From the IMG/VR virus record IMGVR_UViG_3300022689_000178, positions 1 through 64,000 of that record: a stretch of DNA of 64,000 nt; one strand, given 5' to 3'. The notes below the pieces were generated by a model, which was given only the letters and a program-made list of their open reading frames with translations, was not told the DNA's origin and searched no databases. Numbering within the stretch: position 1 is the stretch's first letter; the number at the start of each line of letters is the position of its first letter. Below are positions 5,763-21,138 of the stretch, in pieces. The position numbers and the translations under genes were made by a program. This DNA is from a virus.

Positions 5763-5795
5763 AAATAATTAATATTTTATAATATTGTTTGTTAT

Positions 5796-5829
5796 AAAAA
5801 AGGTTATCAAAATTTGATAACCTTTTTTT
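5796..5829 (+). terminator. intrinsic terminator
   Basis: AAAAAAGGTTATCAA-AAT-TTGATAACCTTTTTTT after the tail operon. Confidence 0.85.
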
Positions 5830-5904
5830 GTGTTAATGGTAAAAATAATTTTTATAAATTTAATATGGCATGGTAATATGATGTTTAATTTTAAATTAAT
5901 AAAA

Positions 5905-16452: not shown

Positions 16453-16484
16453 AAAAACCGTCTTTATTTATAAAGACGGTTTTT
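16453..16484 (+). terminator. intrinsic terminator
   Basis: AAAAACCGTCTTTA-TTTA-TAAAGACGGTTTTT. Confidence 0.85.
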
Positions 16485-16994: not shown

Positions 16995-17048
16995 TGGTAG
17001 CAGTTAGTATAACACACCGTTTTAATGTGTGTTATACATTGTTAGCTG
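16995..17048. repeat. attC-like site 1 (partial)
   Basis: GTATAACACAC/GTGTGTTATAC hairpin 17007-17037, then TTGTTAGCTG. Confidence 0.6.
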
Positions 17049-17090
17049 ACTGGTGCGGATAATTTAGTACAAATCTTAATAAATGAACGA

Positions 17091-18074
17091 ATGATAGTAA
17101 AAGAAAAAATAGGGAGGGGGTTTTTATATTTTATGGACGTATTGGAGGGTTTAAAATTACTACTTGACAATAGCCAAGATTTAATAATAGTTGACCCACC
17201 TTATTACAAGACTGTAAATGAGAAATGGGATAAACAATGGAAGACCGAAAAAGAATATTTAGACTGGTGTAGATTATGGTTTGCTGAATGCGTAAGAGTA
17301 CTGAAAGACACAGGTAGTTTTTATTGCTATGGAAACTTTGACATACTGAGCAAACAAAAAGTATTGATATTTGATGATGCGCTGAACTTTAGGCAAAACA
17401 TTACATTAAACAAAGGATTGAAAAGTATTGCTGGAAGAACAAGCGACAAACTTAGAATGTTCCCGACTGCAAGTGAATACTTGGTGTTTTACACTAAACA
17501 AGAAATGTGGTTTGAAACACCCTTTTCAATTATTATGAAAAGACAAATGAAAGAAAAGGGATTAACTCAGATTGATATTTCTAAACTTATACTTTCACGA
17601 AATGGTAATTTAACTGGATGGGTGCATAATAAGATTAAGGGCATACAATTGCCAACAGCAGAGCAATGGAACAAAATATGCAATTTGTTTGAAATTAAAA
17701 ATGAATATGATTTATTGTGTGAAAGCTACGAAGAACAAAGGTTTACTTTTAACCTACCAACAGGACAAACCGATGTTTGGGATTTTACGCCCGACAAAGT
17801 TAGATTTGGAAATAAGACACAGAAACCACAAGACATAAGTAGAAGAATTATAAAAGCAAGTAGTAACGAAGAACAAAGTGTATTGATACCATTTGCAGGG
17901 AGTGGAAGTGAATGTGAAGCTTGCGAAGTATTGGGTAGAAATTGGACTGCGTTTGAGAATGACCAATTTAGCATTGACATTATACACGAACGATTTAAAA
18001 ACCTTAAAGCTTTTGAAAAAAGCAAAGAGCGTGGGCTTTTTTCTTTTACGGATGAACAGAACAAAGCTGATTAA
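17091..18074 (+). CDS. beta-class DNA amino-methyltransferase with an internal HTH-like insert (cassette gene)
   Basis: VDPPY, RVLKDTGS, TQKP, PFAGSGS; insert MKEKGLTQIDISK...GIQLPTAEQWNKICNLF. Confidence 0.9.
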   Translation: MIVKEKIGRGFLYFMDVLEGLKLLLDNSQDLIIVDPPYYKTVNEKWDKQWKTEKEYLDWCRLWFAECVRVLKDTGSFYCYGNFDILSKQKVLIFDDALNFRQNITLNKGLKSIAGRTSDKLRMFPTASEYLVFYTKQEMWFETPFSIIMKRQMKEKGLTQIDISKLILSRNGNLTGWVHNKIKGIQLPTAEQWNKICNLFEIKNEYDLLCESYEEQRFTFNLPTGQTDVWDFTPDKVRFGNKTQKPQDISRRIIKASSNEEQSVLIPFAGSGSECEACEVLGRNWTAFENDQFSIDIIHERFKNLKAFEKSKERGLFSFTDEQNKAD

Positions 18075-18094
18075 ATGCACCAACGTAGCACTTG

Positions 18095-18181
18095 CAGCTA
18101 ATGAAAATACACTTGCATAGTTTGATTTTTTGTGTAGTGCAACGGAACAAAAAACAAATTATGTCAAGTGTAATGTTATGA
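18095..18181. repeat. attC-like site 2
   Basis: CAGCTAAT-GAAAA-TACACTTGCATAGTTTGATTTTTTGT...ACAAAAAACAAATTATGTCAAGTGTA-AT-GTTATGA. Confidence 0.8.
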
Positions 18182-18222
18182 GTATTTTTATTTATTTTTC
18201 CGTTGTGCCATATAATATCAAA

Positions 18223-18447
18223 ATGAAAAATACAATAACGATAAATAATATAGAATTTGAAATAGGAACTATAAGTATAAATGAATTTGGCGGGCAAACA
18301 GTGTCCTCATTAATTGTTGGTGTTTATGCTGAAAACAAGGATCAGAATATATTTGTAAAACATAATGTATTCAACAGTACAATAAAAAACTTAGAATTAT
18401 TGAAAGATATTTTAACCGTTTTAACTACAAAAAAATATGATTTTTAA
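18223..18447 (+). CDS. hypothetical protein (cassette gene)
   Basis: ATG 18223 (MKNTITIN); the longer track start runs through the hairpin site. Confidence 0.6.
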   Translation: MKNTITINNIEFEIGTISINEFGGQTVSSLIVGVYAENKDQNIFVKHNVFNSTIKNLELLKDILTVLTTKKYDF

Positions 18448-18508
18448 AACAGGTTTTTCAAATAAATTAATGTCGAAAAAGAAAATATAAACTTTTAAAT
18501 AAATAAAA

Positions 18509-18853
18509 ATGGAAAGTATAAAAATAGAAATTGATAGAAAAAACATTCTTGATATTGTAAATAATAAAGTGTCGGAAAATATTTTATCTTATATGGACAA
18601 AAATATGGAAGATATTAATAAAAGTATTGAGAAATATTTTAAGTTATCTTTTTTTCAGGATAAAAAAACACAGTTTGAAAATGCACTCGATTGGACAATT
18701 GAAGATGCTTTTAGAGAAGGAATAAAGACAGCTATGGAGGATTTAAAATTCAAAGAACTTATTGCCGAAAAAGCAAAAGAAATTTTAACAAATGATGATT
18801 TTATTAAAGAATTAGCTGTTGCAAAAGTCAAAAGTTCGCTTGGTTTACATTAA
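18509..18853 (+). CDS. hypothetical helical protein (cassette gene)
   Basis: 114 aa; stop codon directly followed by CCATAAC. Confidence 0.7.
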   Translation: MESIKIEIDRKNILDIVNNKVSENILSYMDKNMEDINKSIEKYFKLSFFQDKKTQFENALDWTIEDAFREGIKTAMEDLKFKELIAEKAKEILTNDDFIKELAVAKVKSSLGLH

Positions 18854-18982
18854 CCATAACGGCTACTTGTAAGAATAGTAGCAGAATTGAAACACGAATA
18901 TTGAAATAATTACAAACTTAAATACAATGGTAGCAGCTAAAAAGACCCTATAACCTGCTATTATTTTTACAAATTGTTATAG
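18854..18982. repeat. attC-like site 3
   Basis: CCATAAC-GGCTAC-TTGTAAGAATAGTAGCAG...CTGCTATTATTTTTACAA-ATT-GTTATAG. Confidence 0.8.
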
Positions 18983-19001
18983 GGCGTTTATTTTAAAAAT
19001 T

Positions 19002-19199
19002 ATGATTGCAAAAAAAAAAGGAATAGAAATATTTCACAAACATTGGGATGAAGGATTATCTGATAGACAAGCAAAGGAATGTGCCTTAATAAGTGTTGGT
19101 GAAATTATTAAAGAATATGACGAAGAAATATTGGAATCTAACGATGTATATCGACAGCAATATTGGATAGAAGTAAGGGATTATTTAAATGCCCTATAA
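19002..19199 (+). CDS. hypothetical protein (cassette gene)
   Basis: 65 aa (AKECALISVGEII...YWIEV); flanked by GTTATAGGGCGTTTA and TAAATGCCCTATAAC. Confidence 0.75.
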   Translation: MIAKKKGIEIFHKHWDEGLSDRQAKECALISVGEIIKEYDEEILESNDVYRQQYWIEVRDYLNAL

Positions 19200-19294
19200 C
19201 GACAGGGGTTGGAGGCGGTTTTTTGCTTTGCAATTTTGCGAAGTGAAACGAGCAAATGTAAAGTTTAAAACTGACTTCCAAACCTCTGTTAGCA
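19194..19294. repeat. attC-like site 4
   Basis: CTATAAC-GAC-AGGGGTTGGAGGCGGTTTT...AAAACTGACTTCCAAACCTCT-GTTAGCA. Confidence 0.8.
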
Positions 19295-19343
19295 ACACTT
19301 TTTTTTATCTTATCGAAATACAAACATTTTAAATATAAATATT

Positions 19344-19670
19344 ATGAATACAGAATTGTACGATAAAGCATGGGAATTACTTGAAAGAAAAGGCTTAAAA
19401 CTTGGCGAAAGAATAATGGTAAGAAGTTGTTTTGCAGGTGCTTACAAAAATGATTATCCTTTCATTGCCGCTAAACATAAAAAAGGCGAAGTTGAATATT
19501 ATCATTCTCAAATAAAAGAAATAAACAATTTAATGTTTAAATCTAAAAATGAAGTAATAATGGCAAATGCTATTTATGAAAACACAAAAGAGAATTTCAA
19601 TCAAAATGATTTTATTCAGCATTTAAAATTTACTTTTAGAATTTTGGGTGTTAGTAGCGACTGGTGTTAG
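19344..19670 (+). CDS. hypothetical protein (cassette gene)
   Basis: 108 aa; flanked by GTTAGCAACA and TGTTGCTAAC. Confidence 0.75.
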   Translation: MNTELYDKAWELLERKGLKLGERIMVRSCFAGAYKNDYPFIAAKHKKGEVEYYHSQIKEINNLMFKSKNEVIMANAIYENTKENFNQNDFIQHLKFTFRILGVSSDWC

Positions 19671-19674
19671 TTGT

Positions 19675-19742
19675 TGCTAACGTAATTTGCTTTATTTCTG
19701 TTTTTGATGTATGAAAAAATTAAATTAAAGCAAATGATATGA
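19675..19742. repeat. attC-like site 5 (core mutated GTT>GAT)
   Basis: TGCTAAC-GTA-ATTTGCTTTA...TAAAGCAAAT-GATATGA. Confidence 0.7.
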
Positions 19743-19793
19743 GTATTTTTATTTATTTCATTTGCAAGTTTTAAAAATAAATAAATTTCGTAA

Positions 19794-20379: not shown

Positions 20380-21138
20380 ATGGCAAGAACAATCATAACT
20401 GATCCATTTTATACGCCTAAAGGTAAGGCACGGGAATATACAGGAAAAGATAATATAGGGCTAAATGTATATAAATATTGTCCAAATGGATGTATTTATT
20501 GCTATTGTCCTTTTATGTTGTGTAAAAAACCTATTGAATTTTATAATGAGCCGGATTATACCGATAATATAATCGCACGTGTAAAATTATATGCTTATAG
20601 ATATGCCAGAAAAGAAGTATTTTTAAGTTTTATTGGCGATATTGGAATTATCGATAAAAATAATTATTTTGTGCAAATATTAGAAATATTTAAAAATCAT
20701 AATATAAGACCAAGAATTTTAACGAAATCAAATATTCATAATTTATTACCATTGTTGAAAGAATGTAATGCTATATTAGGTTGTACAATTGTTACTATAA
20801 AAGAATCAATAAGGGAAAAAAATGAGCCATTTGCATCCACAATTTCAGAAAGATTACAATTATTGAATGAAGCGAAATGTAATGGCATAAAAACATGGAT
20901 TAGCATTGAACCAATTATAGATGTTTATGAAATTTTAACAATTGTAAGATATACACAGAAATATATTGATTATTATTTTATCGGAAAAATGAATTATAAT
21001 GATATTGGAAGTAATGAAACTAAATTAAAGGAAGTTTTGCCAATGGTATATGAATTTTTATCTATGGCAAAGATATCTTTTACTTTTGGAGAAGATACGA
21101 AATTATTAATAAATAAGTGTGGATATACCAAAGTTTAA
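20380..21138 (+). CDS. radical SAM protein (SPL-like subgroup)
   Basis: LNVYKYCPNGCIYCY (CxxxCxxC), ILTKS, EP.AS...ERL, WISIEP. Confidence 0.88.
   Translation: MARTIITDPFYTPKGKAREYTGKDNIGLNVYKYCPNGCIYCYCPFMLCKKPIEFYNEPDYTDNIIARVKLYAYRYARKEVFLSFIGDIGIIDKNNYFVQILEIFKNHNIRPRILTKSNIHNLLPLLKECNAILGCTIVTIKESIREKNEPFASTISERLQLLNEAKCNGIKTWISIEPIIDVYEILTIVRYTQKYIDYYFIGKMNYNDIGSNETKLKEVLPMVYEFLSMAKISFTFGEDTKLLINKCGYTKV

Follow-up and report, generated by a model that had tools for sequence, protein, structure and literature searches.

The window analyzed here, the first 64,000 nucleotides of IMG/VR record IMGVR_UViG_3300022689_000178, is a segment of a phage-like genome (26% G+C, strong positive GC skew, genes almost all on the + strand). 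Four imperfect hairpins sit between small open reading frames (ORFs) of this window, directly 3' of an N6/N4 DNA methyltransferase gene at 17091-18074. We think it fairly probable that such hairpins serve as attC-like recombination sites for a cassette system that resembles the integron and occurs in Flavobacteriales and their phages. The inverted ends of a cassette are 9-10 nt long and specific to that cassette (GTT plus about 6 nt at the start, about 6 nt plus AAC at the end), and adjacent cassettes are joined by an imperfect hairpin that is flanked by TAACG...TGTTA. An earlier reading of these hairpins from the window alone (the sequence-only reading) had suggested a distinct cassette system. 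This is a fair description, but what we see is a variant of the integron principle and not a new principle. If our interpretation is correct, then a dedicated site-specific system that parallels the integron moves the accessory genes of marine flavobacterial phages in the form of discrete cassettes; also, the recombinase clade and the site geometry differ, so standard attC-based tools would mostly miss it. In the literature that was searched, we found no published description of cassette arrays with an Xer-like recombinase beyond two sites in Polaribacter phage P12002L (Qi et al. 2023).

Exact end pairs (GTTA plus 5 nt, matched by 5 nt plus TAAC, with at least two G/C) occur 12 times in the 76.8-kb record that contains the window (estimated completeness 72%), and all 12 lie within two arrays: the one at 17.0-19.7 kb and a second one at 67.5-76.4 kb, outside the window. 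Block shuffles of the genome gave 1.29 +/- 1.12 such pairs, with a maximum of 5 in 300 shuffles. (Only exact pairs were used, as pairs with one mismatch were mostly chance matches.) Each of the 12 pairs spans at least 9 nt, and the ends are cassette-specific. For example, GTTATAGGGC and GCCCTATAAC (18976 and 19191-19200) form a perfect 10-mer, and the 11th position is a G.T pair, which agrees with the wobble noted there by the sequence-only reading. With 4-5 sites in the first array and 14 in the second, the genome has two clusters of attC sites lacking integrases (CALINs: at least two attC-type sites within a few kb and no integrase nearby), although these sites are attC-like by structure only.

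The hairpins have a strong strand polarity. Site coordinates were taken from the sequence plus constrained folds of each hairpin, and folding energies are in kcal/mol throughout. Wider sets of sites were located by their cassette-end pairs (an automated scan for AAC...GTT hairpins was given up as too noisy), and the strand that reads AACG..TGTT was termed the polar strand, with the defining pair left out of the G.T counts. The set from this genome was oriented by the coding strand instead, and its G.T count includes the defining pair. The polar strand was the more stable one at 87 of 91 sites (18 from this genome, 31 from 12 contigs, 20 beside phage recombinases, and 22 from Flavobacteriales chromosomes). 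Within this genome, the coding strand was more stable at 17 of the 18 sites (summed energy of -176.3 vs. -139.2) and had 36 G.T pairs vs. 6 for the other strand. The polar strand was better at all 31 end-anchored sites from the 12 contigs (-373.8 vs. -287.1; G.T 56 vs. 20), at all 20 sites beside phage recombinases (G.T 45 vs. 17), and at 19 of the 22 bacterial sites, where the genes are on the other strand (G.T 60 vs. 29). The wobbles and the strand bias of the sequence-only reading persist in larger sets, where they stay with the polar strand. At all four hairpins of the window, the + strand has the better fold whether it is computed as DNA or as RNA; the energies are, for instance, -15.8 (+) vs. 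-9.0 (-) as DNA and -42.2 (+) vs. -21.3 (-) as RNA for site A3, and -14.8 (+) vs. -13.3 (-) as DNA for site A1.

Phage genes are co-oriented with the AACG..TGTT strand at 28 of 31 sites. In other words, the stable strand is the sense strand in phages, whereas it is the antisense strand for the genes of the bacterial arrays and of classical integrons. The polar strand of the bacterial arrays is slightly C-rich, with genes on the opposite strand, and the same is true of contig L010. Because the bias persists in bacterial arrays whose genes are on the other strand, the polarity is a property of the DNA site and not of the mRNA or of genome skew. In particular, we rejected genome GC skew as the source of the G.T bias: the window favors the + strand only mildly (mean of -13.7 vs. 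-11.1), and in bacterial arrays the bias persists on a C-rich strand.

The sites are also asymmetric, and almost always on the same arm. The sequence-only reading had counted 3 more nucleotides between AAC and the stem than between the stem and GTT (5 vs. 2, 6 vs. 3, 3 vs. 0, and 3 vs. 0), and these counts are correct. It was also right that the window sites have the ends (T)AACG...TGTTA and that the cores GTTATGA, GTTATAG, and GTTAGCA violate GTTRRRY. An excess of exactly 3 nt is the mode in this genome (13 of 18 sites), but in the wider sets the rule relaxes: at 70 of 73 sites, the AAC arm has a basal excess of +2 to +4, with +2 and +3 dominating. Similarly, the 3' arm does have most of the bulges in this genome (about 13 vs. 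3), as the sequence-only reading claimed, but small upper-stem bulges have no arm bias among the 31 sites from 12 contigs (12 vs. 10). At those 31 sites, the base after GTT is A in 26 cases and G in 5, and variable, cassette-specific bases follow.

Homologous methyltransferase cassettes in four unrelated contexts (L020, L021, L022, and L023) identify the unit that is exchanged. They share the block GCCTACGG..hairpin..GTTGTACGCA..methyltransferase..TGCGTACAAC, which begins at the nucleotide after the upstream ...AAC and extends through its own ...AAC, with unrelated flanks on both sides. L016 and L018 have the same pattern of breakpoints. Pairwise scores for methyltransferase cassettes are 56-70 over the 70 nt upstream, which are conserved, and 4-15 over the 70 nt downstream, which are not. 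When the methyltransferase cassette of the window is compared to L031 and to metagenome contigs, homology begins at 17040 and ends at 18101. (One seawater DNA run, which covered small parts only, was used solely for homology breakpoints.) As the shared blocks are bounded by ...AAC on both sides, the hairpin travels with the downstream gene. Mapped in this way, the exchangeable unit is the hairpin plus the downstream body and its ...TAAC, and the mapped breakpoints fall within the conserved TAACG, 5' of the hairpin, on the AACG..TGTT strand. The comparisons support viewing this unit as a classical cassette that is read on the bottom strand, with its gene flipped. That genes are inverted relative to the sites was one of the options raised by the sequence-only reading, and it is supported by the cassette breakpoints, by the G.T pairs and folding energies, and by the bacterial arrays with the opposite gene strand.

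The best candidate for the enzyme is a short Xer-like tyrosine recombinase. In G002, a 288-aa recombinase of this type lies 360 bp past the last cassette. Its best NCBIfam match is XerA (126 bits, below the cut-off), and it matches the integron integrase model (IntI, TIGR02249) with 73.7 bits against a cut-off of 265 bits, over its N-terminal half only. The catalytic R, K, H-x-x-R, H, and Y are invariant in a profile of 23 homologues. This profile retrieved 12 phage loci, of which about 10 have arrays directly upstream on the same strand, while none of 12 control loci with other tyrosine recombinases has an array beside it. The array-linked recombinases are about 270 aa, and the last ...TAAC of the array is directly followed by a conserved TATAATTAAA, which lies about 55 nt 5' of the start codon. 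Homologues are present in 59 of 301 Flavobacteriales genomes, and 6 of the 8 loci inspected adjoin arrays of the same hairpin family; IntI (TIGR02249) was above its cut-off in 0 of the 301 genomes. We rejected gp036 of Cellulophaga phage phi19:3 (418 aa) as the array-linked enzyme: it is a different tyrosine recombinase, with kinship only at the catalytic fold. A tblastn comparison of all ORFs of this genome to five array-bearing phages found no common gene beyond methyltransferases and one other ORF, so it gave no common phage-encoded enzyme. An attI-like motif occurs in the window at chance level.

We propose that the AACG..TGTT strand folds as single-stranded DNA and would be cut in its 5' AAC, as the attC bottom strand is. 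Recombination between two sites would release a circle, within which the two ends of the cassette would pair as a 10-bp box beside the hairpin, and the circle could then re-insert at another TAACG. The enzyme would be the short Xer-like tyrosine recombinase and not IntI. For this phage, it would be supplied in trans, by either the host or a co-infecting phage, or be encoded in the unsequenced 28% of the genome. More tentatively, Flavobacteriales and their phages may have one such system in common, of which the phages use a mirror version: their genes, and any recombinase, would be sense on the recombined strand, and the hairpin loops could supply leaders and start codons. It is then possible that unrelated phages, most of them without the enzyme, trade anti-defense genes, DNA methyltransferases among them, during infection, with the enzyme borrowed in trans. 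(DNA methyltransferases typically shield phage DNA from restriction.)

Several observations weigh against this proposal. First, its support is from sequence, and the single-strand folding, the position of the cut in TAACG, and the enzyme are all inferred. Second, the 76.8-kb record, at about 72% completeness, has no match to PF00589 and nothing that is recognized by the profile of the 23 array-linked homologues, and the complete array-bearing phages P12002L and G001 have no such recombinase either. The idea of a different recombinase family, which the sequence-only reading had put forward, is thus supported by genetic linkage in relatives but not by this record. Third, the phage profile matches the bacterial homologues with only 157-196 bits. 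Fourth, the extra nucleotides are on the AAC arm, and by the position of the extra bases alone, the polar strand would be the classical top strand. Finally, two observations bear on the exchangeable unit. The A2 module is found with six different downstream cassettes. Also, sites B3 and B5 have near-identical hairpins that follow cassettes with the same ends yet precede unrelated cassettes, so there the hairpin pairs with the upstream cassette, contrary to the mapped unit.

The least unlikely alternative is that there is no dedicated enzyme: replication would stall at the hairpins, and modules would be shuffled at TAACG when co-infecting phages recombine by template switching or over short homologies, as with the promoter-stem-loop cassettes of T4-type phages. 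This is suggested by the 5-nt microhomology at all of the breakpoints, by the complete phages that have arrays but no recombinase, and by the near-absence of common genes among array-bearing phages. The stem-loops of T4-type phages (promoter-early stem-loops) are similar in that they lie between small accessory genes in variable regions and are tied to the shuffling of modules. They act by homologous recombination between near-identical repeats, whereas the hairpins here are not alike in sequence, the breakpoints fall exactly at TAACG, and every cassette has ends of its own. Furthermore, recombination without an enzyme does not explain why cassette-specific 10-nt inverted ends are kept by covariation, why whole arrays have a uniform polarity and a conserved asymmetry of 2-4 nt, or why a recombinase and the junction of TAAC with TATAATTAAA are found at array ends.

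It is also unlikely that the hairpins act in RNA, as terminators, as RNase III-type processing sites, or as stems that pair the ends of mRNAs. G.U pairs would then explain the coding-strand bias, and in accord with this, the + strand folds much better as RNA at the four sites, T-rich leaders follow many of the downstream ends, and a sequence in the A2 loop can form a hairpin with the downstream end that is followed by a T run. However, the polarity and the G.T bias stay with the site where genes run in the opposite direction (the 22 bacterial sites, L010, and L016 at 1250). Exact breakpoints in TAACG and the linkage to a recombinase would be left unexplained, and neither Rfam (at the gathering threshold) nor a tRNA scan gave a match. 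Nor do the hairpins resemble intrinsic terminators, which have a G+C-rich stem and an immediate T run: the stems are long and A+T-rich, and the T runs begin 9-10 nt past the stem. An RNA-level step, another option of the sequence-only reading, is thus disfavored.

A third possibility, which seems quite improbable, is that the units are moved by an IS200/IS605-type transposase, another HUH enzyme, or an unknown nuclease, which would cut 3' of a TAAC target under the guidance of GTTA at the foot of the hairpin. The arrangement resembles that of IS200/IS605 elements and their palindrome-associated derivatives: the unit inserts 3' of a tetranucleotide that is outside the unit and ends in the same tetranucleotide, it is strand-specific, it has an imperfect hairpin near one end, and in those elements the cleavage site is read by pairing near the foot of a hairpin. 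On the other hand, there is one hairpin per unit instead of two subterminal ones, and the ends pair as a regular 10-bp duplex. Neither this record nor any of 5 other records of phages with arrays has a Y1 (HUH) transposase (PF01797), and the gene that does co-occur with arrays encodes an Xer-type tyrosine recombinase.

Finally, the sites can be compared to the attC sites of integrons. As in integrons, imperfect hairpins lie within inverted AAC...GTT triplets, with one site per cassette, and each cassette starts with a sequence complementary to its own far end; this signature of a circular cassette was seen in every related locus that we examined. One strand is more stable and richer in G.T pairs, and the breakpoint is in the AAC of that strand. 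In classical attC sites, it is the bottom strand that is more stable, by about 2.1 kcal/mol, and that has more G.T pairs (1.24 vs. 0.39); this strand is cut in its 5' AAC, and the genes are on the top strand (Nivina et al. 2016, PMC5027507). Classical sites also have 2-3 extrahelical bases on the arm opposite that AAC and a symmetric spacer of 5-6 nt (Nivina et al. 2016, PMC5027507). In the sites described here, by contrast, the AAC arm of the stable strand has 2-4 extra nucleotides beside AAC. Instead of following the 7-nt consensus RYYYAAC/GTTRRRY, the ends are specific to each cassette and match over 10 nt. In phages, the sense strand of the genes is the stable one, and a hairpin is passed on together with the gene 3' of it, while the bacterial relatives keep the classical gene orientation. 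Lastly, there is no IntI, and an Xer-like recombinase of about 270 aa lies at the far end of the array, behind the junction of TAAC with TATAATTAAA. Neither orientation of the phage sites fits the classical attC model, because the stability, the G.T pairs, and the crossover mark the coding strand as bottom-like while the extra bases sit on the AAC arm. These conflicting marks (the first three indicating "bottom" and the extra bases indicating "top") give a handle on how an enzyme other than IntI chooses its strand.

Strand-specific reactions of an Xer-family recombinase on a hairpin that forms in one strand of phage DNA are also a feature of CTX-phi-type integration. In that case the whole phage genome integrates at the chromosomal dif site by means of the host's XerCD, with one DNA strand folded, whereas here many small cassettes form arrays next to a short, dedicated recombinase.

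Qi et al. 2023 (PMC9892861) reported CALINs in virulent phages, and they called two sites in P12002L, with divergent directions, that they treated as ordinary attC sites. One of these, P12002L_attC1 (TGCTAAC GGCTAC ... ATT GTTAGGC), has the 6-vs-3 geometry of site A2; it was detected by HattCI only, and among the six phage sites that were assayed, it was the only one that gave no recombinants with IntI1 (Qi et al. 2023, PMC9892861). Their CALINs and our arrays also have methyltransferase cargo in common, with no integrase in either, but arrays, cassette-specific ends, strand polarity, and the Xer-like enzyme were not described there. It is very improbable that the sites are ordinary attC sites that were acquired from bacterial integrons and are used by classical IntI in the classical orientation: AAC...GTT ends, complementary cassette ends, single-ORF cassettes, and the software calls in P12002L (Qi 2023) would all be expected, but the cores violate GTTRRRY, relative to the genes, stability and G.T bias mark the opposite strand, the wrong arm has the extra bases, none of the 301 Flavobacteriales genomes had IntI above its cut-off, and the one phage site that failed to recombine with IntI1 has this geometry.

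The sites and cassettes of the window array are listed in Table 1.

Table 1. Recombination-site candidates and cassettes of the array in the window.
Feature	Position	Strand	Description
Site A0	17007..17043	+	Short hairpin GTATAACACAC / GTGTGTTATAC (17007-17037), loop CGTTTTAAT, then ATT and GTT (17041-43); 5' of the methyltransferase cassette
Methyltransferase cassette	17041..18102	+	End GTTAGCTG (17041), N6/N4 DNA methylase ORF 17091-18074, end GCAGCTAAT (18094-18102, AAC decayed to AAT)
Site A1	18100..18177	+	AAT 18100-02, 5 nt, 25-bp imperfect stem 18108-18133 / 18150-18175, 2 nt, GTT 18175-77 (GTTATGA)
Cassette body	18175..18860	+	Two small ORFs, 18223-18447 and 18509-18853; no family matches
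Site A2	18858..18978	+	AAC 18858-60, 6 nt (GGCTAC), stem 18867-84 / 18955-72, 3 nt (ATT), GTT 18976-78
Cassette body	18976..19200	+	End GTTATAGGGC (18976), ORF 19002-19199 (65 aa), end GCCCTATAAC (19191-19200)
Site A3	19198..19290	+	AAC 19198-200, 3 nt (GAC), long imperfect stem-loop, 0 nt, GTT 19288-90 (GTTAGCA)
Cassette body	19288..19681	+	End GTTAGCAACA (19288), ORF 19344-19670 (108 aa), complementary end TGTTGCTAAC (19681)
Site A4	19679..19738	+	AAC 19679-81, 3 nt (GTA), stem 19685-19705 / 19715-35, 0 nt, GAT 19736-38 (decayed GTT)

The methyltransferase gene, which matches Pfam PF01555 at 2e-28, is itself a cassette, with bounds GTTAGCTG at 17041 and CAGCTAAT at 18102. L031 has the same methyltransferase cassette with the bounds GTTAGCTG...GCAGCTAAC, followed by a different hairpin. 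The loop of A0, (T)CGTTTTAATG, recurs with different but compensated stems 5' of the 83%-identical methyltransferase in L031 and in attC1 of P12002L. The hairpin family of A1 includes two other sites in the genome (B1 at 68344 and B9 at 74033). Both triplets are intact only in A2 and A3; AAC is changed to AAT in A1, and GTT to GAT in A4. The body at 18175..18860 is probably two fused cassettes because its ends, GTTATGAGTA and TTAACCATAAC, do not match; the partner of GTTATGAGTA, namely TACTCATAAC, is found at genome 75841-50. The 65-aa ORF at 19002-19199 matches phrog_21441 (function not assigned); searches for relatives gave none among the viral contigs and phage records and a single partial homologue from the protein collection.

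The A2 module, whose stem has two conserved G.T pairs, is kept in phage phi19:3 and in 4 IMG/VR contigs, where those G.T pairs are retained and the flanking genes and ends are unrelated. Inverted ends were seen in all 6 loci that share the module. The loop of A2 contains CCCTATAAC (18945-53), which is complementary to the downstream end GTTATAGGG, and in 5 of the 6 loci this copy co-varies with the downstream cassette end (window 18945-18984; L001 4085-4135; L002, L004, and L005). The small hairpin that the copy and the downstream end can form encloses the 3' arm of the main stem and precedes a T-rich run, which amounts to an alternative fold. In a seawater metagenome contig, an A2-type hairpin is without 81 nt of the loop (window 18877-18959), and we regard it as a short-loop variant. 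The A2-type subfamily looks to be phage-borne, because the pattern TAACGGCTAC-N90-120-ATTGTTA is no more frequent in 401 Flavobacteriales genomes than its reversed control. A scan of a genome collection for A2-type hairpins gave one contig of a Flavobacterium metagenome-assembled genome. In L010, a 4.1-kb contig of a Flavobacterium metagenome-assembled genome, the genes are opposite to the site polarity, as in chromosomal arrays, and the array is probably bacterial instead of phage-borne.

As to arrays elsewhere, L004 has at least 14 consecutive cassettes, some of which are just 80 bp and have no ORF. Three of these ORF-less cassettes of about 80 bp, on the minus strand of L004 (2307-2387, 3349-3428, and 5406-5487), have perfect 10-nt ends and an internal hairpin. 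In P12002L, sites of the same geometry flank the methyltransferase and Mom-like genes, and the end-pair signature is also present. Long hairpin loops (genome 72790-72830 and 73225-73260; L016, L018, and L021-L023) have the motifs AACTTTCAAA and ACAAATG in common, and the conserved ACAAATG fits with the link between a hairpin and its downstream gene. Junctions without a hairpin (TAACGATGGTTA and TAACGTGTTA) are present at the end of the second array (genome 76359-76425), and comparable "empty" junctions (TAAC AAT GTTA) are present in phi19:3 and L005.

Cassettes whose ORFs are unrelated can have short leaders and tails of about 10-25 nt in common, as with GTTATGGTTTTTA..AATCATTTCA (genome 70005 and 71210). 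Behind both A1 (18178-18197) and A4 (19739-19758) lies one and the same 20-nt leader, ATGAGTATTTTTATTTATTT, and a related leader follows B12 (genome 75413). Ordinary hairpins that resemble intrinsic terminators (a G+C-rich stem and then a T run) are present in the window at 5792-5830 and 16457-16484, and they are clearly unlike the cassette sites. Just 3' of the array, at 20380-21138, the window encodes a radical SAM domain protein (Pfam, 7e-8).

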